From contig QFNK01000001.1 of the NCBI GenBank assembly GCA_003240795.1, positions 1 through 37,706 of the forward strand: a stretch of 37,706 bases of DNA, given 5' to 3'. Each line of letters starts with the position of its first letter. Position 1 is the stretch's first letter. Origin of the DNA: Micavibrio aeruginosavorus. Lineage in GTDB: Bacteria; Pseudomonadota; Alphaproteobacteria; Micavibrionales; Micavibrionaceae. A model generated the notes under the pieces. That model worked only from the letters and a program-made list of their open reading frames with translations. It ran no database searches and was not told the origin of the DNA. Below, in pieces: positions 8,662 through 37,037 of this stretch. The position numbers were made by a program, and so were the translations under genes.

Positions 8662-10959
8662 TTAAGCGGCGTTAGCTTTCTTTTCTTCCTCGTTCGCCTG
8701 CACTGCTACGCTGGCGATTGCGGAAATATTCAGGATGCCGCGCGGCGTGACCGACGGCGTCAGGATATATGACGGTTTCGCCATGCCAAGCAGCATCGGG
8801 CCGATTGGAATACCTTCGCCCAGAACCTTCAGAAGGTTGAAGGAAATGTTCGCGGCCTCCAGATTAGGCATGATGAGCAGGTTCGCATCGTTTTTCAATG
8901 TCGAATTCGGCATCAGCGTTTTGCGGACTGTTTCGGACAGCGCGGTATCAGCATGCATTTCGCCGTCGATCTCTAGTTCCGGCGCGCGTTGTTTCACATC
9001 GATGGTGGCCGCGCGCATCTTGAACGCGCTGCCCCCTTTGTGGCTGCCGAAGTTGGAGTAGGAGAGCATGGCGACGCGCGGCACGATACCGAAGCGGCGG
9101 ATTTCCTCTGCCGCCATCAGCGTCATTTCGGAGATTTGCGCGATGCTCGGGTCCGGGTTCACGTGCGTGTCGCAGATGAAATAGATCCCTTTCGGCACCA
9201 GCAGGGCGCGGAGCGCGGCCGCCGTTTCTACACCGGGTTTCAGGCCGATGATGTCCTGAACATGCTTCATATGATCCTGGAAATCACCGACGGTGCCGCA
9301 GACGATAGAGTCCGCTTCGCCCAGATGAACCATCAATGCGCCGATCACGGTCGGCGACGTGCGCACGACCAGCTTTGCAACGGCAGGGGTCACGCCGCGG
9401 CGTTCCATGATCGTGTGATAGGTTTCCCAGTATGTCTTGTAGCGCGGGTCATCCTGCGGATCGCAAAGGTCGAAATCCACGCCTTCCTGCATACGCAGGC
9501 GCTGGCGCTTGATGCGGGTCATGACGACGTCGCGGCGGCCGATGATGATCGGGCGGGCGATTTTTTCATCCAGAACCATCTGGATCGCGCGGAGGACGTG
9601 GTCTTCTTCCCCTTCGCAATAGACGATGCGTTTCGGCGCTTCCTTCGCGTGGCTGAACACGGGGCGCATGACCATGGTCGAGCGCGTGTTGTTCTGCTGG
9701 AGCTTTTCACGGTAGGCGTCCCAGTCCTTGATCGGACGCGCGGCGACGCCCGTGTCCATTGCGGCCTTTGCCACCGCCATCGACAGTTCGATGATCAGGC
9801 GCGGGTCGAACGGTTTCGGGATCATGTATTCGGGGCCAAATTCAAGAGCCTCGCCCGGATAGGCGGCCATGACTTCGTCCGTGGGTTCGCGGCGTGCGAG
9901 GGCGGCGATCGCCTTGACGCACGCGATTTTCATTTCTTCGTTGATCGCCGTTGCGCCGACGTCAAGCGCGCCGCGGAACAGGAACGGGAAGCAGAGGACG
10001 TTGTTCACCTGGTTCGTAAAGTCGGAGCGTCCCGTGCAGATGATGGCGTCAGGCTTACCCTTGCGTGCTTCGTCCGGCATGATTTCCGGTGTCGGGTTCG
10101 CGAGTGCCATGATGAGGGGCGCTTCACCCATTTTTGCGACCATTTCGGCGTTCAGTGCTTTCGGGCCCGAAAGGCCGAGGAAGATGTTCGCGCCTTCGAG
10201 CGCGTCAACCAGTTCGCGCGCGTTCGTGTCGTTCGCGAATTGCGCCTTGTACGGGTCCATGCCTTCCGGACGGCCTTTGTAGATGACGCCGTTGCGGTCG
10301 CAGACGATGATGTTGTCTTTCGGCATGCCGAGCGAGACCAGCAAATTCAAGCAGGCCAGAGCGGAGGCGCCCGCGCCGTTGGCGACGAGTTTGACGTCCG
10401 TGATTTTTTTCTCTTTCAGTTCCAGCCAGTTCAGGATGGCGGCGGAGACGATGATCGCCGTGCCGTGCTGGTCATCGTGGAAGACGGGGATTTTCATGCG
10501 CTCACGCAGGCGGCGTTCGACTTCGAAACATTCCGGCGCCTTGATGTCTTCAAGGTTGATACCGCCGAAGGACGGCTCCAGACGCGCGATGGTTTCCACC
10601 AGCATGTCGACATCGGTTTCATCTATTTCGATATCGACGGAGTCGATGTTCGCGAATTTCTTGAAGAGGACGGATTTACCCTCCATCACAGGCTTGGACG
10701 CCAGAGCGCCGATATTGCCGAGGCCGAGAACGGCGGTGCCGTTGGAGATAACTGCAACAAGGTTTCCGCGCGATGTGTAGTCCAGCGCTTTCAGCGGGTC
10801 TTTTTCGATCTCAAGGCATGGAATGGCCACGCCGGGGGAATAGGCGAGCGCAAGGTCGCGCTGCGTCGTCAGCGACGTCGTCGGTTTGATGGAGATCTTA
10901 CCGGGGGTCGGCAGGCGGTGGTAATCTAAAGCTGCCTGGCGGAGTTCATCATCGGACAT
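8662..10959 (-). CDS. maeB: NADP-dependent malic enzyme (malic enzyme fused to a PTA-like domain)
   Basis: 765 aa. N-terminus ALDYHRLPTPGKISIKPTTSLTTQRDLALAYSPGVA is followed by a C-terminal phosphate acetyltransferase-like domain. Confidence 0.96.
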   Translation of the reverse strand: MSDDELRQAALDYHRLPTPGKISIKPTTSLTTQRDLALAYSPGVAIPCLEIEKDPLKALDYTSRGNLVAVISNGTAVLGLGNIGALASKPVMEGKSVLFKKFANIDSVDIEIDETDVDMLVETIARLEPSFGGINLEDIKAPECFEVERRLRERMKIPVFHDDQHGTAIIVSAAILNWLELKEKKITDVKLVANGAGASALACLNLLVSLGMPKDNIIVCDRNGVIYKGRPEGMDPYKAQFANDTNARELVDALEGANIFLGLSGPKALNAEMVAKMGEAPLIMALANPTPEIMPDEARKGKPDAIICTGRSDFTNQVNNVLCFPFLFRGALDVGATAINEEMKIACVKAIAALARREPTDEVMAAYPGEALEFGPEYMIPKPFDPRLIIELSMAVAKAAMDTGVAARPIKDWDAYREKLQQNNTRSTMVMRPVFSHAKEAPKRIVYCEGEEDHVLRAIQMVLDEKIARPIIIGRRDVVMTRIKRQRLRMQEGVDFDLCDPQDDPRYKTYWETYHTIMERRGVTPAVAKLVVRTSPTVIGALMVHLGEADSIVCGTVGDFQDHMKHVQDIIGLKPGVETAAALRALLVPKGIYFICDTHVNPDPSIAQISEMTLMAAEEIRRFGIVPRVAMLSYSNFGSHKGGSAFKMRAATIDVKQRAPELEIDGEMHADTALSETVRKTLMPNSTLKNDANLLIMPNLEAANISFNLLKVLGEGIPIGPMLLGMAKPSYILTPSVTPRGILNISAIASVAVQANEEEKKANAA

Positions 10960-11713: not shown

Positions 11714-11800
11714 TGGTGCGGCCAAGAAGACTCGAACTTCCACGGGATTTCTCCCACAGCGACCTCAACGCTGCGCGTCTACCAATTCCGCCATGGCCGC
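11714..11800 (-). tRNA. tRNA-Leu (anticodon GAG), class II, CCA encoded
   Basis: Folded by hand. Acceptor GCGGCCA/UGGCCGC; 3-bp D stem; anticodon stem CAGCG/CGCUG with loop UUGAGGU; long variable arm GGGA..UCCC; T arm GGAAG-UUCGAGU-CUUCU; 3' ACCA. Confidence 0.95.
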
Positions 11801-11916: not shown

Positions 11917-12816
11917 TTAGGAAGGTAGGCTTATGCAGTAGCAGCCGGCGCGCGTAGGTTTCTGGCTGTTTATGTCGCAGAATCCGGCCTTTCTGTAACC
12001 GGACGTAATACTTGAACAAAGAATTTCTATCCGTTCAGGCGGGACGCAGTCTTTTAAAGATTCGCGAATATTGAAGCGAAGAAGCGACATATAAACAGCC
12101 GTATTTTGGACAAGTGTGTTTTGACGTATCGGCGTAACTTCCGCGAATTTTTCCGGTGCTGTCAAATTGTCGCCTCTGGCAATAAGTGTGGCAAGGATGG
12201 CTTTTAGGCAAGGAGGAAGTTTTACCGGATTTCCATCAACGGTCACAACGGCCTTTGAAAATGCCTGCTGCGGTGATTTTGTTATGACGAACGGCCCATA
12301 TGCCAGAATATTGTTATTAAACATTTTGGACAGGCGCTTTTCGGCCTGAATTTTTAACTCCTGACGGATTGATTTTTTTTCTTCTACCTGTTTTTTAAAT
12401 TCAACGCCTTTGGGATCCCACGTGTAAAGCCCTTTCAGCGTGATACATTTTGTGATCTTTTCCAAATCATCCAAAGGTATTTTATTTTCAAGCTGTGCTT
12501 TTATCCGTTTGCGCATATTGCAAAGATGGACGTGTGCAGGCTTTCGATTGTCTTTCGATATGGCTGTGTCAGGAATGGCTTGCTGTATCGCGTTGATTGT
12601 CAATTTCTTGCCTTGGAGGGCGATGAGCAGGGCTAACAACTTCTTTTCAGCGTGCCTAAGCTCTACAGCGTGTTCTCTGACATAAACCTGTCCATCGCCT
12701 GCTGCGATACTCTTATCCCCTTTCTCGATCCTGAAATCCTTATGAGAGATTGATTTTTCAAACAGAAACAGATTGTCCAAATCCACGGCGTTGGCCATGT
12801 GGAAGCTTTCATTCAT
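11917..12816 (-). CDS. receiver-less protein with two tandem OmpR/PhoB-type (trans_reg_C-like) winged-helix DNA-binding domains
   Basis: 299 aa. Repeat 1: VELRHAEKKLLALLIALQGKKLTINAI...HVHLCNMRKRIKAQL...TLKGLYTWD. Repeat 2: YGPFVI...VTVDGNPVKLPPCLKAILATLIARGDNLTAPEKF...VYMSLLRFNIRESL...ITSGYRKAGF. Sampled lines are about 37-42% GC, clearly below flanking DNA. Confidence 0.6.
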   Translation of the reverse strand: MNESFHMANAVDLDNLFLFEKSISHKDFRIEKGDKSIAAGDGQVYVREHAVELRHAEKKLLALLIALQGKKLTINAIQQAIPDTAISKDNRKPAHVHLCNMRKRIKAQLENKIPLDDLEKITKCITLKGLYTWDPKGVEFKKQVEEKKSIRQELKIQAEKRLSKMFNNNILAYGPFVITKSPQQAFSKAVVTVDGNPVKLPPCLKAILATLIARGDNLTAPEKFAEVTPIRQNTLVQNTAVYMSLLRFNIRESLKDCVPPERIEILCSSITSGYRKAGFCDINSQKPTRAGCYCISLPS

Positions 12817-12924
12817 TACACACCTTCATTTTTTTAGGCGGGTATACAGCGATAAGTTGCGAAAAGTCAACTTTTATATGGAAATATTTTGACGGTTTGC
12901 AATATTCGCCCGGCTTGCTACATC

Positions 12925-13554
12925 ATGGCTATGGAATTCAAAACGTCCGCAGGTCTGATCGATTACCCATCCGCTATCGAGTTTATGGAGCGGCGGGTGG
13001 CAGATATTCGTGCCGAAACAGCGGAAGAGTGTGTCTGGCTGCTGGAGCATCCGCCGCTTTATACGGGCGGGACGAGCGCCGACCCCGCCGATCTTCTGAA
13101 GGCGGAATTTCCCGTCTATGAGACAGGACGGGGCGGGGAATATACGTATCACGGCCCGGGACAGCGCGTGGCCTATGTGATGCTGGATCTTAAAAAGCGC
13201 CAACAAGCTCCTGATATTAAAAAATATGTATGGCAGTTGGAAGAATGGGTGATCCGTTCTTTGGCGCATTTTGGGGTCATAGGGGAGCGCCGTGAGGGGC
13301 GGGTCGGCATTTGGGTTGTCACGGCCGAAGGTGAAAAAAAGATTGCCGCGATCGGTGTGCGTATTCGTCACTGGGTGGCGTATCATGGTGTAGCCATCAA
13401 TGTCAGTCCCGATCTTTCCCATTTTGCGGGGATCGTGCCGTGCGGCATCCACGGTTTCGGCGTTACATCGATGGAGGATCTTCGAAAGCCTATATCTATG
13501 AATGATTTGGATTTGGTTCTTCGGGCGGAATTTGAAAATGTTTTTGGCGCATAA
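12925..13554 (+). CDS. lipB: octanoyltransferase (lipoyl(octanoyl) transferase)
   Basis: [19 protein letters not shown]...[16 protein letters not shown]...[12 protein letters not shown]...AAIGVRI is typical LipB. The track ORF starts at 12889, but the in-frame ATG at 12925 (MAMEFK) is more likely. Confidence 0.93.
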
Positions 13555-13574
13555 TGCGTCAATAAAAGGTCATT

Positions 13575-14216
13575 TCAGGCGAATTTTGCCTGCATGAACT
13601 GGCTGTATTTTTGGCGGTCCATATCCTGATAAGGACGGTTTTCCAGATTCAGATATGCGCCGGATTTTTCGGCAAATGTTTTTAATGACAGTCGTGCGTC
13701 ATTGAAATTGCTGAGCGAGTTTTTGATTTTTTTGGCGCAGTCCAATACGATCAGGCGGTCGAAATCATCCAGCATGTCCACATTTTCGAGCACGTCGCTT
13801 TCGACCCAGTGGCTTATTTCATGATAGCAGCGCTCAAGCGCTTCTCCGGATGTTTCCCGCTGTGCATCCAGCTGGGTGACTTTTGCAAGCTGGCTCGGTT
13901 TTGAAAGGAAGGCGCGGGAATATTCCTCAATACCCATGACGATGAGCGTTTCGGGTGCGGATTGTCTGTTAAACACGTTTTTCAGATAATTGTGAAAAAT
14001 CATGCCCGCTCCATTCCAGAGTTCGCCGCGCAGGCCGGTATGGCCGACAAGGCGGTTCTGTTTTTCCTCGGTGATCGGGAAGATTTTGGCGATGTCTATA
14101 ATGTTGGAAACTATAGCTTCGCTTTCGGCTTTTATAACGTCGTGCGCGCCGCCTTTTTTAACCAGCGGGACAAGCGCGGCCAGCATGTCTTCGCGCGTGG
14201 CGAATGCATCGGTCAT
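13575..14216 (-). CDS. hypothetical protein (orphan, lower GC)
   Basis: 213 aa. Strong SD GAGGGAGG 8-9 nt upstream of the ATG. The upstream gene has its own terminator, so this is an independent transcription unit. No family recognised. Confidence 0.6.
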   Translation of the reverse strand: MTDAFATREDMLAALVPLVKKGGAHDVIKAESEAIVSNIIDIAKIFPITEEKQNRLVGHTGLRGELWNGAGMIFHNYLKNVFNRQSAPETLIVMGIEEYSRAFLSKPSQLAKVTQLDAQRETSGEALERCYHEISHWVESDVLENVDMLDDFDRLIVLDCAKKIKNSLSNFNDARLSLKTFAEKSGAYLNLENRPYQDMDRQKYSQFMQAKFA

Positions 14217-26242: not shown

Positions 26243-27037
26243 ATGACGGCATCTTTTATAGTAGACGAATTGAAGGCGGTTGATTACGACCGCTACCTGC
26301 TCGGTTTTTTCGTGCCGCGTGCGGTGAGGGAAGGGGTGTGGGCGCTTTACCTGCTCAACCATGAAATCGCGCGAACGCGGTCGATGGTGACGGATACCAA
26401 TCTCGGGCTGATCCGTCTTCAGTGGTGGCGGGATGAAATTGCGCGTTTGTATGACGGGCGGGGCTGTGGACAAATTCCGGTGTTATCCACACTGGCACCG
26501 TATGTCGAGCGCTACGGATTAAAGCAGGATTATTTTGACCAGATCATTTACGCACGCGAATTCGATCTGGAGGATCGTCCGCCATCGAATGAGGAGGGCC
26601 TATGTAATTATGCACGTTTTTTGGGCGAGCCGTTGAACAGGCTGGCGCTGCAAATGATTGGTGGAAATGTCGATGATGGCGAAGTGATTGATATATCAAG
26701 AAATTTTGAATTGATGAAACTCATACGCGGCGTGCCGTTTATGCTGAGTGAGGGGCGATTTTATTTGCCGCAAAATTGGGTGGATTCAAAGGGACTTAGT
26801 GTCGATAAACTCGTTAATAACAATGAGAAAAGTGCAATTGTTGATATGGTTGAAAGGGCTTCTTCGCTTGTCGTTCCGTATCGAAAGCCTGAAAATCGTT
26901 TCTTATGTGTTCAGCAAAAAATGACTGACATTTGGCTGAAAAAACTAAGAAAAAATGGATTTGACGTTTTTAATAGCCATAATCACGTGAATCCAAAATT
27001 TTTTGGATTACGTCTATTGTTTTCGCCGCGTGGCTGA
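26243..27037 (+). CDS. squalene/phytoene synthase family protein (NDUFAF6-like)
   Basis: 264 aa. DYDRYL...ALYLLNHEIARTR...RLQWWRDEI pattern of the non-catalytic alphaproteobacterial NDUFAF6-like subgroup. The 3' third is noticeably AT-richer. Confidence 0.8.
   Translation: MTASFIVDELKAVDYDRYLLGFFVPRAVREGVWALYLLNHEIARTRSMVTDTNLGLIRLQWWRDEIARLYDGRGCGQIPVLSTLAPYVERYGLKQDYFDQIIYAREFDLEDRPPSNEEGLCNYARFLGEPLNRLALQMIGGNVDDGEVIDISRNFELMKLIRGVPFMLSEGRFYLPQNWVDSKGLSVDKLVNNNEKSAIVDMVERASSLVVPYRKPENRFLCVQQKMTDIWLKKLRKNGFDVFNSHNHVNPKFFGLRLLFSPRG
26465..26491. repeat. 27-bp palindrome of two head-to-head DnaA-box 9-mers, copy A (TGTGGACAA-N9-TTATCCACA)
   Basis: Read directly: TGTGGACAA attccggtg TTATCCACA, inside the NDUFAF6-like CDS. 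Arms and 9-nt spacing are the same as at 32577-32603. Confidence 0.6.
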
Positions 27038-27341
27038 CGTCATCCAATTGTCTGATGCTTAAATTTTGTGGGAAGGCCAAAATTTTTGTAGCGACGCATT
27101 TTGGGTTCGCTCTGTACGTCTCTTAAAGGCATAAAATTCCATCTTTCGATACAGTGGGTCTTTGAGTTTTTGGCTGTGTCTGGTCGTAGCGAAAATACGC
27201 ATTTTAATGTCCAAAATGCCTTTGAAATCGCCATTTTAAGCGTTTTTGAAGATTTTTAAAAACCGGAAGCTGGCGGGGATTTTTTGCCGTTCCCGACACC
27301 ATTGCCGTACTTGGCACTTTGCAAGTTTGTGTGGCCTGTGC

Positions 27342-27364
27342 CATGCAAATGGGAAGTTTGCATG
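27342..27364. repeat. perfect 8-bp inverted repeat CATGCAAA-N7-TTTGCATG in the AT-rich spacer
   Basis: Read directly. It sits 4 nt upstream of the orphan plus-strand terminator hairpin. Confidence 0.5.
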
Positions 27365-27368
27365 CGCC

Positions 27369-27395
27369 ATTGTGCGAAAAAGCGCACAATTTTTT
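27369..27395 (+). terminator. plus-strand rho-independent terminator with no annotated plus-strand gene in front of it
   Basis: ATTGTGCG-aaaaag-CGCACAAT followed by TTTTT on the plus strand only. It is 330 nt downstream of the nearest plus-strand stop and abuts the stop codon of the convergent hydrolase gene. Confidence 0.55.
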
Positions 27396-28089
27396 ATGCT
27401 TTATATTTCGTTTCAGGATGGTTGTTTTCGGGGCGGTCAAATCGGCCTTGCGTTAAAAAATACGTGACCTGGGCGACTGATTTTTCAAGCAGAAACGAGT
27501 GCGACATATTGATCGTATAATGGTCTTTGATGCTCGGTATGCGCGTGCTTTCCAAGGATACTAGGCCGTCATGAACGCCTGTTTTCTTCATCGTGGACAG
27601 GAATATCGGATATTCCCATGCTCGCGTTCCCGCGATGACGCCGACCTCGATATTTTCGGGGATGATGTAATCAATTGTTTTTCTGTATTCCGTCGTCAGC
27701 TGCTGTCCTGACGGGCCGAAAAAACGGCGGTACAGGAATGTCGGGGCGAGAAGGTCTGCAACCTCGCTGCCGCGATAGGGCGGCGCTATCAACACGGCCC
27801 GCGACACATTCCCGATCATATTCTGCTGCATGATTTCGAGCGCAACAAGGCTGCCCATGGAATGGGTCACGAAATGTGTTTTTGCGTAGTCTTTTATATC
27901 TTTCGCGGCTATTTTCTGCGCGATAAAACTCGCGCAGTTTTCGATGTTTTCTTTCAGCGAAGGGTAGGCGATATTGAGCGTGTCAAAACCCGCGCGGCGC
28001 AGCCCGAATTCCAGCCACGCCATACGCAGCGGCGACATGCCTATTCCATGAAGGATAACGACGAGTTCGTTCCGCGGGGCTGCCTTCAT
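27394..28089 (-). CDS. alpha/beta-fold hydrolase (esterase/lipase-like)
   Basis: 231 aa. [10 protein letters not shown] and the nucleophile elbow THSMGS. The ATG overlaps the trmFO stop as ATGA. Confidence 0.8.
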
Positions 28090-29456
28090 GCTGCTTTTAT
28101 TTGATGAAACTGCGACAGCCAGCCGTCGATATCTTCGAGGGCGCGGATGGCCATCAGTTTTTTCTTCTCCCGCGACTTGTCCTTGCTCTTCACCCCGACC
28201 GGATCGCCTATCGGCGGGAACAGGCCGAAATTGACGTTCATCGGTTGGAACGTGTCGGCGTTTCCGCCGCCCGTGATGTGCGAGATGATCGCGCCCATGG
28301 CTGTGGTCGGCGGGGGCGGCGTCATTTCCACGCCCAGTCTTTCACATGCCGCAAAACGTCCGGCCATGATGCCGACCGCAGCAGATTCAACGTACCCTTC
28401 GCATCCGGTGATCTGCCCGGCAAAACGGAGACGTGGCATCGCCTTCATCTGCAACTTTCCGTTCAGAAGGCGGGGGGAATTGATGAAGGTGTTGCGGTGA
28501 AGTCCGCCCAGACGGGCGAATTCGGCATTCTGAAGGCCGGGGATGAGGCGCAGGACACGTGTCTGCTCCGCATACTTCATTTTTGTCTGGAAGCCGACCA
28601 TATTGTAGAGCGTGCCGAGGGCGTTGTCCTGCCGTAGCTGAACCACCGCATAAGGGCGACGGTCCGTCCTGGGATCCGTCAGTCCGACGGGTTTCATCGG
28701 GCCAAAGCGTAGCGTATCCACGCCGCGCCCTGCCATGATCTCTATCGGCATACAGCCTTCGAAGTAGGGGGTGGACGTTTCCCAATCCTTGAATTCGGTT
28801 TTTTCGGAGGCCAGCAGCTCGTTGATGAAACGCTCGTATTCCTCTTTGTTCATTGGACAATTTATGTAGTCCGAGCCTGTTCCGGCGGGGCCTGCCTTGT
28901 CGTAGCGCGACTGCATCCATGCCGTATCGAAATCAATACTGTCCTTGTAAACGATCGGCGCAATGGCGTCGAAGAAGGCGAGTTCGTCTTCGCCGCCGAT
29001 GGCGCGAATTTTTTCCGCGAGCTCCAGCGATGTCAAAGGGCCCGTCGCAATGATGACGGAATCCCAATCTTCCGGCGGAAAATCGACATGTTCGCGCCGT
29101 ACCGTAATCAGCGGGTGAGCGTTGATTTTGGCTGTAACTGCGTCCGAAAAGGCATCTCTATCCACAGCCAGCGCGCCGCCAGCCGGAACCGCCGCGCGGT
29201 CGCCTTCGGCCATGATCAGGGATTCGCTACGCCGCATCTCCTCATGCAGGAGGCCGACCGCGTTATAATAGGTATCGTCGGATCGGAATGAATTCGAACA
29301 GACCAGCTCCGCGCATCCCTGACCCTTGTGTGCGTCGGTCATGCGAACGGGGCGCATTTCGTGAAGAATAACGGGCACGCCCATGTTGGCGGCTTGCCAT
29401 GCGGCTTCGGACCCTGCGAGGCCCGCGCCGATAATGTGAATAGGTTTCAATGTCAT
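28086..29456 (-). CDS. trmFO: methylenetetrahydrofolate--tRNA-(uracil-5-)-methyltransferase TrmFO
   Basis: 456 aa. [19 protein letters not shown] motif, [12 protein letters not shown] and [14 protein letters not shown]. Confidence 0.96.
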
Positions 29457-30916: not shown

Positions 30917-30931
30917 GTTCCCTTTTTGTTC
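30917..30931 (-). promoter_or_regulatory. alphaproteobacterial-type LexA (SOS) box, GAAC-N7-GAAC on the gene strand
   Basis: Plus strand GTTC ccttttt GTTC. On the gene strand the second GAAC ends 2 nt before the polymerase ATG, overlapping the likely RBS. Confidence 0.65.
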
Positions 30932-32183: not shown

Positions 32184-32501
32184 CTACAGGCCTTTTTTCG
32201 GCACGTAGGTGCAGGGAATGACCGCCTTGCCGAAGGTGAGGGTGGCATCGATGCCCTTGTTCCAGAAGGTCACCGTGCTGTTGCCGTATTGGGCCCCGCT
32301 GGCCGAAACCTGACGTTCCAGCGCGTAGGACTTGCCCGCATAGGTCAGTTTGGCTTCATCCGGAGAGTAGAAGGTAATCTGCGCCGGCTGGCCGCCACAG
32401 GAAAGCGGGCGCGGTGTGACGACCGGACGTTTCTTCGGCGGCGACGCGCAGGAGGCGAGGGTCAGGGCAATCAGAAGGCAGGCGGCTATTCTGGACATCA
32501 C
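32184..32501 (-). CDS. mliC: MliC-family lipoprotein (membrane-bound inhibitor of C-type lysozyme)
   Basis: 105 aa. Lipobox LTLASC. SASGAQY matches the SxSGAxY motif, and FWNKG resembles the YxxxTKG motif of MliC/PliC. The GTG at 32501 (or ATG at 32498) abuts the gcvPB stop, and the AAGGGA RBS lies inside the last gcvPB codons. Confidence 0.75.
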   Translation of the reverse strand: MMSRIAACLLIALTLASCASPPKKRPVVTPRPLSCGGQPAQITFYSPDEAKLTYAGKSYALERQVSASGAQYGNSTVTFWNKGIDATLTFGKAVIPCTYVPKKGL

Positions 32502-34036
32502 TATTGCTGTCCCTTCCAGCGCAGTTTCGGTTCACGCGCGGCGCGAACTTCGTCGAGGCGGCGGGTGGGGGCGCTCTGTGGATAACTATGAAACTTATCC
32601 ACATCGCCGTTTCGGACATCCGACGCGATTTTCTTCATGACCCGGATGAACCGGTCCAGCGCGTCCTTGCTTTCCGTCTCCGTCGGTTCGATCAGCATGG
32701 CGCCCTGAACCACCAGCGGGAAGTAAACCGTCATGGGGTGGAAGCCATGTTCGACAAGCGCCTTGGCAATATCAAGCGTGGTCACGCCGACATCTTTCTG
32801 AACCTTGTCGGTCAGCAGGCATTCATGCATGCAGGGGCCGTCAAACGGTACGTGATAGTCCTGTTTTAATTGGGAAAGTATGTAATTGGCGTTCAGGACG
32901 GCATCCTCAGATACTTGGCGCAGCCCGTCCGAGCCGTGGGACATCATGTAGGTCAGCGCGCGGATGTGCATGCCGAACTGTCCGGCGAAACCCTTGATGC
33001 GTCCACAGTTCATCGGGCGGTCCGTTTCGGCTTCTAAACGATACGTATCATTATTATGAATAACGATTGGTTTTGGCATGTATTGCGCCAGTTCCTCGGT
33101 CACGCAAATAGGGCCTGAACCGGGGCCGCCACCGCCGTGGGGTGTGGAAAAGGTCTTGTGTAGATTAATGTGCATGACGTCCACGCCGAAGTCGGCAGGC
33201 CGGATTTTGCCGACCAAGGCGTTGAAATTTGCCCCGTCACAATAGAAATAACCGCCCGCGTCATGGAGCAGTCTGGAGATTTCTTGAATATCGCGTTCGA
33301 AAAGACCGCAGGTATTCGGGTTCGTAACCATCATGCCCGCGACATCGTGGCCATCGCCCAGGGCGGTTTTGAAAGCGTCAAGCGTGACGCGGCCGCCTTC
33401 ACGGGTAGGGATGACACGCAGGTCAAAACCGCACATGGCGGCGGTCGCGGGGTTTGTGCCGTGGGCAGAGTCGGGGACAAGAATCACTTTTTTGTGCGTG
33501 TTGCCCTTCGCCTGATGGGCGCGGGCAATGGTCATGATGCCGGCCAGTTCGCCGTGCGCGCCGGCGGCTGGTGTCAGACAGACGCCGGGCAGGCCGGTCA
33601 ATTCGCCGAGCCATTGCTGCAGCTCATGCATCAGTTGCAACGCCCCTTGCACCGTCGAGGCAGGCTGAAGCGGGTGGATATGCGCGAAACCGGGCAGGCG
33701 CGCCATCTTCTCGTTCAGGCGCGGATTGTGCTTCATCGTGCAGGAGCCAAGCGGGAAGAAGCCGGAATCGATGGAATAATTCTTGGTCGAAAGGCGCACA
33801 AAATGACGCACCACCTGCGGCTCGCTCACCTGTGGCAGGCCGATATCGCCGCGGGCGTTCTGGCCTGTACGAAGGGGCGTGTTCTTTGGCTGTGTCATGT
33901 CCACACCGGAATGGTCGGAACGCTGTTTCTCCCATAGCAGGTTTTCATGGTAGTGCAGACCGCGATTCAGATCGGCCGCTTGAAACGTGTCCACATCCTG
34001 CGTGTCAGAAGGTGATTTGAGAGAAGCGTTGGTCAT
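32501..34036 (-). CDS. gcvPB: glycine dehydrogenase (decarboxylating) subunit 2
   Basis: 511 aa. LGSCTMKHNP and the PLP-lysine context NLHKTFSTPHGGGGPG. Confidence 0.97.
   Translation of the reverse strand: MTNASLKSPSDTQDVDTFQAADLNRGLHYHENLLWEKQRSDHSGVDMTQPKNTPLRTGQNARGDIGLPQVSEPQVVRHFVRLSTKNYSIDSGFFPLGSCTMKHNPRLNEKMARLPGFAHIHPLQPASTVQGALQLMHELQQWLGELTGLPGVCLTPAAGAHGELAGIMTIARAHQAKGNTHKKVILVPDSAHGTNPATAAMCGFDLRVIPTREGGRVTLDAFKTALGDGHDVAGMMVTNPNTCGLFERDIQEISRLLHDAGGYFYCDGANFNALVGKIRPADFGVDVMHINLHKTFSTPHGGGGPGSGPICVTEELAQYMPKPIVIHNNDTYRLEAETDRPMNCGRIKGFAGQFGMHIRALTYMMSHGSDGLRQVSEDAVLNANYILSQLKQDYHVPFDGPCMHECLLTDKVQKDVGVTTLDIAKALVEHGFHPMTVYFPLVVQGAMLIEPTETESKDALDRFIRVMKKIASDVRNGDVDKFHSYPQSAPTRRLDEVRAAREPKLRWKGQQ
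32577..32603. repeat. 27-bp perfect palindrome of two head-to-head consensus DnaA boxes, copy B (TGTGGATAA-N9-TTATCCACA)
   Basis: Read directly: TGTGGATAA ctatgaaac TTATCCACA, inside the 3' end of gcvPB and about 75 nt upstream of the mliC-like start. Confidence 0.65.
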
Positions 34037-36796: not shown

Positions 36797-36901
36797 GGTG
36801 CTTCTTGCCTTTCTACGGCCGCGTCCATATATTATTTCTTAAAGGTGTGATTGTAGAATTTTTACCACGCCGGATACCGGATTTGAAAAGGAGACACGGA
36901 T

Positions 36902-36994
36902 ATGTCCACAGACACGAAAAAAGAGACAGACAAAAAAGACGAACAAGGCAAAGGCGGCCATGGACATGGCTGCGGTTGCGGCCACAGCCACTAA
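36902..36994 (+). CDS. 30-aa His/Cys/Gly-rich small protein (candidate metal-binding peptide), not in the ORF track
   Basis: AAGGAG lies 8 nt upstream of the ATG. Translation: MSTDTKKETDKKDEQGKGGHGHGCGCGHSH. A TAA stop is followed 17 nt later by a strong terminator. The track shows only a spurious 240-aa read-through in another frame. Confidence 0.6.
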   Translation: MSTDTKKETDKKDEQGKGGHGHGCGCGHSH

Positions 36995-37010
36995 GCTTTA
37001 CATATTCAGA

Positions 37011-37037
37011 AAAACCCCGCTTCAAGCGGGGTTTTTT
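37011..37037 (+). terminator. rho-independent terminator of the small-peptide gene
   Basis: AAAA-CCCCGCT-tca-AGCGGGG-TTTTTT. Confidence 0.85.

Follow-up and report, generated by a model that had tools for sequence, protein, structure and literature searches.

Inverted DnaA-box pairs within two core genes of Micavibrio-like bacteria are candidate sites of DnaA control outside the origin

Introduction

[quoted passage not shown] Both datA and the DnaA-box clusters are intergenic, with several boxes packed into at most about 1 kb; datA additionally needs IHF. At E. coli oriC, the outer boxes R1 and R4 read TGTGGATAA at the left and TTATCCACA at the right. Distal boxes that point outward, or tail to tail, have been described as common in origins (PMC5043019). 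[quoted passage not shown] The same study places nucleotide synthesis, RNA metabolism and repair within the E. coli DnaA regulon (PMC11317965). The DARS core has a gap of 5 bp (PMC6868365), and the DARS1 core, as we read it from MG1655, runs TTATCCACT-N5-TGTGGATAA-N3-TGTGTATTA.

Here we describe two sites, A and B, in a stretch of 37,706 nucleotides from Micavibrio aeruginosavorus (contig QFNK01000001.1; hereafter the window, meaning the whole stretch of DNA that was analysed). In geometry the two sites are unlike the E. coli tandem double boxes, the DARS core, datA and oriC, although each of these systems shares something with them. Like the E. coli double box, which typically joins the consensus TTATCCACA to a weaker partner, sites A and B are pairs of 9-mers outside oriC; one of the bound E. 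coli regions is intragenic (in dnaN), as sites A and B are, and the species implied to bind is a DnaA dimer. The E. coli boxes, however, share one orientation across a gap of 2–3 bp, whereas those of sites A and B are inverted and 9 bp apart in all relatives. DARS1 and DARS2 are likewise non-origin elements in which two oppositely oriented DnaA boxes are essential, and they act on DnaA and not on a gene. In the DARS core, TTATCCACN-N5-TGTGGATAA, the CACA ends face each other, whereas in sites A and B the polarity is reversed and the gap is 9 bp; moreover, the DARS core has a third box in tandem with box II and is intergenic, whereas sites A and B lack a third box and are intragenic. datA and the B. 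subtilis clusters resemble the present sites, as we interpret them, in being high-affinity sites away from oriC whose value presumably lies in binding DnaA and not in regulation of the host gene, and sites A and B are close together on the chromosome, but they are two isolated pairs, 6.1 kb apart and in coding sequence. R1 and R4 of oriC have the same polarity as the arms of sites A and B but are separated by about 200 bp, in a setting that also holds weak-site arrays and a DNA unwinding element; the arms of sites A and B are 9 bp apart, without a cluster, a conserved AT-rich element or a GC-skew switch.

Results

Two pairs of inverted DnaA boxes lie within coding sequence

Site A is a 27-bp element, TGTGGACAA-N9-TTATCCACA, at 26465–26491. 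Its right arm (26483–26491, + strand) is a perfect DnaA box, TTATCCACA, and coincides with the codons TTA TCC ACA (L-S-T). Its left arm (26465–26473, − strand) is a weaker box that reads TGTGGACAA on the + strand and TTGTCCACA on the − strand; it matches the consensus at eight of nine positions, the exception being a C for T, and coincides with the codons TGT GGA CAA (C-G-Q). Between the arms lies the 9-bp spacer attccggtg (26474–26482). The host gene (26243–27037, + strand) encodes an SQS_PSY/NDUFAF6-like protein of the squalene/phytoene-synthase family (Pfam PF00494, E-value 2.7e-33), in which the site spans +222 to +248 and is read in frame as G-C-G-Q-I-P-V-L-S-T.

Site B, 6112 bp from site A, is a 27-bp element at 32577–32603, TGTGGATAA-ctatgaaac-TTATCCACA, in the 3′ end of gcvPB (32501–34036, − strand; glycine dehydrogenase subunit 2, with the Pfam domains GcvP2_C and GDC-P). 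Both of its arms are perfect boxes: the left arm (32577–32585, − strand) reads TGTGGATAA on the + strand and falls on the gcvPB codons (GA)T GTG GAT AA(G), the 9-bp spacer occupies 32586–32594, and the right arm, TTATCCACA, occupies 32595–32603 on the + strand. The site is about 25–34 codons ahead of the gcvPB stop codon and 76–102 bp upstream of the start (32501) of an mliC-like ORF. An earlier note on this DNA had reported site A with this sequence and these arms, spacing and coordinates, one arm perfect and the other with a single mismatch, in a plus-strand NDUFAF6-like gene, and had reported a copy with the same 9-nt spacing 6.1 kb away in the minus-strand gcvPB; re-reading of the sequence, a pattern search, and ORF and Pfam annotation bore out this description.

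The paired motif is rare in the window and in the clade

A search of the window with TGTGGAYAA-N9-TTRTCCACA, allowing up to two mismatches, returned two matches, sites A and B, and none of 100 shuffles contained any. Perfect TTATCCACA boxes in the window numbered three, all within the two sites, compared with 0.11 expected and with no shuffle out of 100 that reached three. Held against the DnaA-box consensus (TTATCCACA, or TTWTNCACA in relaxed form), the four arms are three perfect boxes and one 8/9 box, TTGTCCACA. Approximately 210 kb of DNA from the clade, outside both sites, held a single other perfect box, in relative L351. Within about 100 bp of either site there were no additional DnaA boxes (≤2 mismatches), and no arm of either site had a tandem partner box 2–3 bp away.

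The same pattern, TGTGGAYAA-N9-TTRTCCACA, occurred in 73 phage or mobile-element contigs of IMG/VR, in which the pairs of perfect boxes made up 29 sequence families. Unlike sites A and B, 54 of the 73 lay outside any ORF of at least 100 amino acids, and most of the 73 belonged to origin-like clusters of 3–12 boxes. When the gap was allowed to vary in a scan of the viral contigs, N9 was the largest bin among the matches listed (about 15 pairs, versus at most 11 for other spacings), but after dereplication a preference for N9 in the phage arrays was not clear and it appeared as one of several recurrent spacings; we therefore do not propose N9 as a spacing that DnaA favours.

Site A is conserved as DNA

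We compared site A across 16 related genomes, which range from 41 to 100% protein identity (lowest ~41%) and from 41 to 59% G+C. All 16 encode L-S-T, and all 16 do so with TTA TCC ACA, that is, with the right-arm box intact; the degeneracy of these codons is 6-, 6- and 4-fold, and neighbouring synonymous sites are saturated. The earlier note had held that relatives keeping the same residues through other codons would speak against a DNA-level function, and the outcome was the opposite. Among 40 degenerate columns at which the amino acid is invariant, the only ones to use a single codon were those of L-S-T and one Phe codon, and L-S-T was the sole run of three single-codon columns in the SQS_PSY-like gene. 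The other invariant Leu columns of the same gene used four or five codons, with TTA in 0–2 of the 16 genomes. In an alignment of 8 genomes over 8.7 kb, only four runs of at least 9 nt were fully conserved; the right-arm box was among them, and its run stopped exactly at the edges of the box.

The left arm followed the pattern (T/G)GTGGA(C/A/G)AA across the 16 genomes, with positions 2–4 invariant and GTGGA kept. Its Gly codon was GGA in 13 of 15 cases, versus 1 of 31 at the other invariant Gly columns (Fisher 1.4e-8). T was present at position 7 in none of the 16 genomes; a perfect left arm is ruled out at site A because TGT GGA TAA would create an in-frame stop codon. The spacer measured 9 bp in 16 of 16 genomes and varied in sequence (L274, for instance, has catcaggtt and L350 has agtcctatc).

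Among the 120 closest homologues of the SQS_PSY-like protein, L-S-T was found in 86 and [CG]G-x4-LST in 78; homologues that depart from the signature read L-S-I, L-S-A or F-S-T. More distant family members without the box carry H-E-V-L-x-P-L-A at the same place, and L-S-T therefore follows the DNA motif. Contigs from four metagenome runs contained no variant within 26465–26491, but their divergence was merely 1–2%, and for this reason the comparison of near-identical strains says little.

Site B is conserved in some lineages and lost in others

Both arms of site B are kept in 8 genomes, in which the left arm is TGTGGAYAA or TGTGGAAAA and the spacer and one residue vary. The spacers were always 9 bp (ctatgaaac, gtatgaaac, gcgtgaaac, gaatgaaac, ttgtgaaat and ttatgaaac). 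In L185, L349 and L351 the two arms have decayed jointly, and these three lineages are scattered in the gcvPB tree; because it has been lost at least three times, site B is dispensable. The Pro codon of the site was CCA in 8 of 8 genomes possessing the other arm, and CCG, CCG and CCC in the three without it (Fisher 0.006).

On the genomes compared, site A, which the earlier note had listed as a second copy, is not a degenerate one, and it is more deeply conserved than site B. Because the sites stay unchanged across distant relatives, selection on the DNA itself, beyond that on the encoded proteins, is strongly supported. The proposal in the earlier note that the element is independent of coding strand and reading frame is also supported.

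The neighbourhood of the two sites is syntenic

The genes of this region have the shared order sodB, SQS_PSY, (hydrolase), trmFO, Y-family polymerase, TerB-like, lipoprotein, MliC and gcvPB. Both order and orientation were kept in every relative examined except L352, whether site B was present or lost (L185, L349 and L351). In L352, trmFO is missing and a histidine-kinase gene has been inserted, and the segment is neither inverted nor absent. Relatives differ in whether they have, between the two sites, the hydrolase gene and a 228-aa ORF. Two further suggestions of the earlier note did not survive these comparisons: the window's most atypical content does not lie in the stretch bracketed by the sites, with G+C reaching its minimum (0.436) at 12–13 kb, adjoining a tRNA-Leu gene, and the synteny check gave no inversion or loss of a segment flanked by the site pair.

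Over the window the cumulative GC skew shows an overall rise and does not switch sign at site A or B, and the AT-rich spacer at 27038–27393 is reduced to 12–16 bp in L075 and L351. An origin of replication was considered and rejected, there being no GC-skew switch, no cluster of boxes and no conservation of the AT-rich spacer. A scan for promoters and terminators found nothing beside either site, and its overall counts equalled those expected from shuffles.

Discussion

From the motif, its non-random occurrence and its conservation at the DNA level, we infer that sites A and B are probably selected DnaA-binding sites outside the origin, most likely forming a candidate chromosomal DnaA-control locus. 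Each site would provide a binding place for two DnaA molecules through two inverted 9-bp boxes 9 bp apart, with a polarity (left box TGTGGATAA, right box TTATCCACA) like that of R1 and R4, the outermost E. coli oriC boxes. At site A the perfect box would anchor DnaA and aid a second DnaA onto the weaker partner, which is as near to the consensus as the reading frame permits. Selection acts on the DNA and has moulded the encoded peptides to accommodate the boxes: the SQS_PSY-like protein has C/G-G-x...L-S-T and GcvPB has V-D-K...Y-P-Q. The sites could serve as a high-affinity sink for DnaA or as a place where its activity is altered, and the copy number of such a locus would double upon passage of the replication fork. 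We consider DnaA control the most likely role because the sites are not an origin and neither of them lies in a recognisable promoter.

Several observations count against this explanation. The inverted geometry with a 9-bp gap is one for which cooperative DnaA binding is not established; the sites are isolated pairs, unlike datA or the B. subtilis clusters; lineages have lost site B on at least three occasions; and N9 is not clearly preferred in the dereplicated phage arrays.

An effect on local transcription is the second possibility, which we regard as conceivable but rather unlikely. DnaA would again bind, with the purpose of linking the expression of the host or neighbouring genes to replication. 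Bound at site A (+222 to +248), it would act as a roadblock to RNA polymerase elongating through the SQS_PSY-like gene; at site B it would control mliC and the lipoprotein gene, by way either of an internal promoter or of read-through out of gcvPB. The neighbours include the one-carbon genes gcvTHP, the gene for the folate-dependent tRNA methylase TrmFO and a Y-family polymerase gene; the NDUFAF6-like assembly factor and the lysozyme inhibitor, however, have no known link to the cell cycle. The distance from site B to the mliC start is constant, at 73–107 bp in relatives, but this is a trivial outcome of a site anchored in the C-terminus of gcvPB, and the mliC gene overlaps or abuts the gcvPB stop codon, which suggests that the two are co-transcribed. 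The promoter scan found no promoter-like site near A or B. In E. coli, DnaA does regulate transcription and form roadblocks within genes, but the classic precedent, the intragenic box of E. coli guaB, is unbound in vivo (PMC11317965).

It is improbable, if less so than the readings considered below, that some other clade-specific dimeric DNA-binding protein reads the 27-bp palindrome and that the likeness to DnaA boxes is a coincidence. Dyad symmetry and a fixed 9-bp gap at both sites are typical of homodimeric regulators, and the geometry is not an established DnaA arrangement. On the other hand, the invariant 9-mer is the exact universal DnaA consensus, with conservation ending at the edges of the box; site A is strongly asymmetric, joining a perfect half to a weaker one as DnaA double boxes do; and the same pair in phage contigs sits among further DnaA boxes. 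The tolerated variants, TTGTCCACA and TTTTCCACA, are known DnaA-box variants. We compared the sites with the motifs of Fur, CRP, NifA, OxyR, LysR (nod box), NrdR and dif/Xer, and rejected these because the spacer is not conserved and the conserved block is the DnaA 9-mer; dif/Xer and the other regulators also fail because sites A and B have no spacer identity. The Fur motif, GATAA-N9-TTATC, has the same outer spacing as sites A and B, and an unconserved spacer speaks against sites of the Fur, CRP or LysR type.

A hairpin in mRNA or single-stranded DNA, with a 9-bp stem and a 9-nt loop and acting for example on mRNA stability or in a REP-like manner, is very improbable. The mRNA of site B does have a predicted fold of −18.5 kcal/mol (z = −4.6), but site A folds no better than shuffles (z = −0.5), and the minimum-energy structure predicted for L077 lacks the hairpin. 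Changes in the arms are all one-sided and uncompensated (T>C in L074 and L265, and T>C in L184), the left arm of site A varies against an invariant right arm, and neither site matches an Rfam family, the only Rfam match of the window being a tRNA.

That the sites bound a mobile, invertible or recently inserted segment as recombination sites is scarcely credible: there are indeed two similar palindromes at a distance of 6.1 kb, G+C dips somewhat at 26–28 kb, and the hydrolase gene and 228-aa ORF come and go between them, but the idea is contradicted by synteny that is conserved but for L352, also in relatives without site B, Pfam annotation found no recombinase domain encoded there, both sites are inside conserved core genes, and their spacers share no identity and so leave no common crossover region. 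Chance or pure constraint on the proteins can be given next to no weight, for although all proteins of the subfamily share L-S-T and gcvPB is highly conserved, no shuffle out of 100 yielded the motif, all 16 genomes have the same codons, these include rare ones (TTA and GGA, with CCA at site B), and the peptides are confined to the clade that possesses the boxes.

With DnaA control as the preferred reading, the sites offer a concrete and testable candidate for such control in a new lineage. They also present a new geometry of boxes (inverted, with R1/R4 polarity and a 9-bp gap) whose effect on the formation of DnaA dimers can be measured. Beyond DnaA, they provide a clean example of a regulatory DNA motif that overrides the drift of synonymous codons and even dictates residues: a perfect box has been held inside a coding gene through shifts from 41% to 59% G+C, with the protein adapting to the DNA. 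Consensus boxes within genes should therefore not be written off as coding noise.

Our search of the literature on Micavibrio and DnaA, and on tail-to-tail or back-to-back boxes, found no prior description of such sites. It is a tentative idea, and one that we rate as less likely than not, that Micavibrio-like bacteria possess clade-wide a previously undescribed DnaA-control locus outside the origin, an analogue of datA or DARS that is built differently, from back-to-back pairs of boxes with a 9-bp gap in two housekeeping genes whose proteins have been bent to fit, and that helps to time initiation. The Micavibrio-like Alphaproteobacteria of this clade are probably predatory, and if the idea is true, such a locus could couple the initiation of replication to the switch from attack phase to growth phase.

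Two inverted DnaA-box pairs within coding sequence

Site A, described in the earlier note, reads TGTGGACAA attccggtg TTATCCACA at 26465–26491 and lies in frame (G-C-G-Q-I-P-V-L-S-T) within a plus-strand gene (26243–27037) for a squalene/phytoene-synthase-family (SQS_PSY; NDUFAF6-like) protein (Pfam PF00494, 2.7e-33). The second copy reported in gcvPB, with the same 9-nt spacing, was likewise present: site B, TGTGGATAA ctatgaaac TTATCCACA at 32577–32603, falls within the last 35 codons of the minus-strand gene (32501–34036). Searching the window for TGTGGAYAA-N9-TTRTCCACA with up to two mismatches returned these two sites as the sole matches, and none of 100 shuffles matched. All three perfect TTATCCACA boxes in the window (0.11 expected) lie inside site A or B, and no further DnaA boxes with up to two mismatches clustered near either site. 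The motif is real and non-random. One-mismatch boxes also occur in trmFO (CTATCCACA, 29158–29166) and gcvPB (TTTTCCACA, 33143–33151), both highly conserved genes, and at the orthologous positions of the relatives L074, L077, L078 and L079.

Codon-level conservation of site A

We compared the SQS_PSY-like gene in 16 distinct genomes (the window and the relatives' loci L074, L075, L077, L184, L185, L265, L274 and L345–L352), which range from 41 to 59% G+C and extend down to ~41% protein identity. The inference of a DNA-level function proved right: we looked for relatives encoding the same amino acids through other codons, and found the L-S-T of the right arm to be TTA TCC ACA in all 16, while the left-arm Gly codon was GGA in 13 of 15 genomes, a codon used just 1 time in 31 across the remaining invariant Gly columns of the gene (Fisher 1.4e-8). 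Only 4 of the 40 amino-acid-invariant degenerate columns used a single codon, namely the three consecutive L-S-T columns (6-, 6- and 4-fold degenerate) and one Phe; the remaining invariant Leu columns each used 4–5 codons, with TTA in 0–2 of the 16 genomes. Across 8.7 kb aligned at the nucleotide level from 8 genomes, just four runs of at least 9 nt were fully conserved; one of these was exactly TTATCCACA, with variable positions on either side, and was the sole such run in the weakly conserved SQS_PSY-like gene. These alignments show a motif kept at the DNA level far beyond what coding would need.

The left arm followed (T/G)GTGGA(C/A/G)AA, with positions 2–4 invariant and T at position 7 in none of the sampled genomes; the window's one left-arm mismatch is the best possible in frame, because a T there would give TGT GGA TAA and hence an in-frame stop. 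Read on the other strand, the left-arm variants are TTGTCCACA, TTTTCCACA and TTCTCCACA, all near known DnaA-box variants. The gap was 9 bp in every genome and variable in sequence; L274 has H-Q-V in place of I-P-V in the spacer and nonetheless keeps TGTGGACAA-N9-TTATCCACA. Site A was lost from none of the sample. More distant SQS_PSY-family members have H-E-V-L-x-P-L-A at this position, without a box, and among the 120 closest homologues L-S-T occurs in 86 and [CG]G-x4-LST in 78; the peptide thus follows the DNA motif.

Retention and loss of site B

Both arms of site B, perfect or with one mismatch, were present in the window and in L074, L077/L079, L184, L265, L347, L348 and L350, around differing spacers (ctatgaaac, ttgtgaaat, gaatgaaac, gtatgaaac, gcgtgaaac, ttatgaaac) and a varying residue between the arms (S/N/T/A). 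The GcvPB peptide V-D/E-K-F-H-x-Y-P-Q is restricted to the clade of the window; L185, L349 and L351 have T-E-K ... Y-P-(Q/V) instead, and both arms are degraded together. Every genome with the site used CCA for the Pro (8 of 8), whereas the three lacking it had CCG, CCG and CCC (Fisher 0.006). On a GcvPB neighbour-joining tree these three lineages are scattered among the positives, which implies that site B is old and was lost repeatedly. Across the compared loci, each site behaves as a single unit of two arms at constant spacing.

The sister lineage L194 has neither site, and in L352 site B has decayed to 3 mismatches. Outside the two sites, ~210 kb of clade DNA contained one perfect box, the extra TTATCCACA of L351 at 9793–9801, inside sodB. 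No other N9 pairs were found in 80 loci (1.3 Mb) of more distant Alphaproteobacteria.

Gene order around the two sites

Among 185,579 species genomes, the closest gcvPB loci belonged to MAGs labelled Micavibrio, Alphaproteobacteria or (mislabelled) Pseudobdellovibrionaceae. The local order, serS / pcm / M23 peptidase / yajC-secDF / TerC / sodB / SQS_PSY / (hydrolase) / trmFO / Y-family polymerase / TerB-like / lipoprotein / MliC / gcvPB-PA-H-T, was the same in relatives with SQS_PSY proteins 80%, 57% and 41–55% identical to the window's, and was unchanged in lineages without site B. The hydrolase gene and a 228-aa ORF are variably present: the alpha/beta-hydrolase gene (27394–28089 in the window) is absent from L077, L349 and L350. 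The AT-rich spacer after the SQS_PSY-like gene (357 bp, 27038–27393) is only 12–16 bp in L075 and L351. The exception is L352 (11509–15802), where trmFO has been lost and an inserted hybrid histidine-kinase gene separates the lipoprotein gene from the MliC gene.

The earlier note had suggested that the sites bracket the most atypical part of the window, and here it was wrong. The intervening segment was inverted in none and absent from none of the relatives examined, the spacers of the two sites have no sequence in common, no recombinase gene is encoded between them, and the window's lowest G+C (0.436) lies outside the segment, at 12–13 kb, adjacent to a tRNA-Leu gene. These results do not support the bracketing idea.

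The tRNA-Leu(GAG) gene (11714–11800, minus strand) directly adjoins this low-G+C stretch (11917–14216), whose 299- and 213-aa ORFs have no match in Pfam and which resembles a genomic island integrated at tRNA-Leu(GAG). Just upstream of the Y-family polymerase start (~30914, as inferred from relatives' 435-aa products), GTTCCCTTTTTGTTC at 30917–30931 fits the alphaproteobacterial LexA-type direct repeat GTTC-N7-GTTC, a pattern not rare by chance (2 matches against 1.5 expected).

Comparison with known DnaA sites

In E. coli, ChIP-seq found DnaA bound in vivo almost only at box pairs, usually a consensus box plus a weaker one, and the double boxes are tandem with a 2–3-bp gap (PMC11317965). The DARS1 core (PMC6868365), which we read from MG1655 as TTATCCACT-N5-TGTGGATAA-N3-TGTGTATTA, differs from sites A and B in its opposite polarity, 5-bp gap and third box. 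Boxes R1 and R4 of E. coli oriC share the polarity of our sites (TGTGGATAA left, TTATCCACA right); this "tail-to-tail" orientation of distal boxes is reported for many origins (PMC5043019), but in sites A and B it is squeezed to a 9-bp gap.

Dense DnaA-box arrays occur on many phage contigs (IMG/VR contigs L001–L073 and L080–L183). Among the matches listed, their perfect tandem pairs peak at gaps of 2–3 bp, as in the E. coli double box, which suggests genuine DnaA arrays. The N9 module of sites A and B also occurs on 73 phage contigs, its perfect-box pairs falling into 29 families; most copies are non-coding and sit within clusters of 3–12 boxes. Inverted pairs have several recurrent gaps (1–2, 9, 13, 20–23 and 30 bp), and N9 is recurrent yet not clearly preferred.

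A candidate role in DnaA control

DnaA is probably the protein that binds sites A and B, given that its exact consensus does not vary, that the pairing of a strong with a weaker box fits, and that the variants tolerated resemble DnaA boxes. We favour a role in DnaA control, in which the sites would act as a high-affinity sink or as modulators of DnaA activity, because they are intragenic, occupy unrelated genes, lie a short distance apart and account for almost every perfect box in the region. A literature search for DnaA sites in Micavibrio found none.

The main alternative is local transcriptional control via roadblock or read-through. Site B lies 76–102 bp upstream of where the mliC-like gene starts, a start that overlaps the gcvPB stop; a promoter scan gave no obvious promoter link for either site. 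The MliC-like lipoprotein ORF (32184–32501, minus strand) begins at the gcvPB stop codon with a 1-nt overlap in the window (in relatives the two are 7–10 bp apart or overlap by 4 nt) and is therefore probably co-transcribed with gcvTHP. Upstream of that operon (36797–37035), no glycine riboswitch or other Rfam family scored at the gathering threshold.

A hairpin element was rejected: the mRNA of site B is able to fold (−18.5 kcal/mol), but for site A folding is no better than in shuffled sequence; arm changes are all one-sided and uncompensated, and an Rfam search gave no match. An origin was also rejected: the overall trend of cumulative GC skew through the window is upward and the skew does not switch sign at either site, there is no DnaA-box cluster, and the AT-rich spacer at 27038–27393 shrinks to 12–16 bp in L075 and L351.

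Sites A and B, for which we favour DnaA control, are DnaA boxes outside the origin, a known kind of site with an unusual geometry, and they provide an unusually clear footprint of DNA-level selection within coding sequence.
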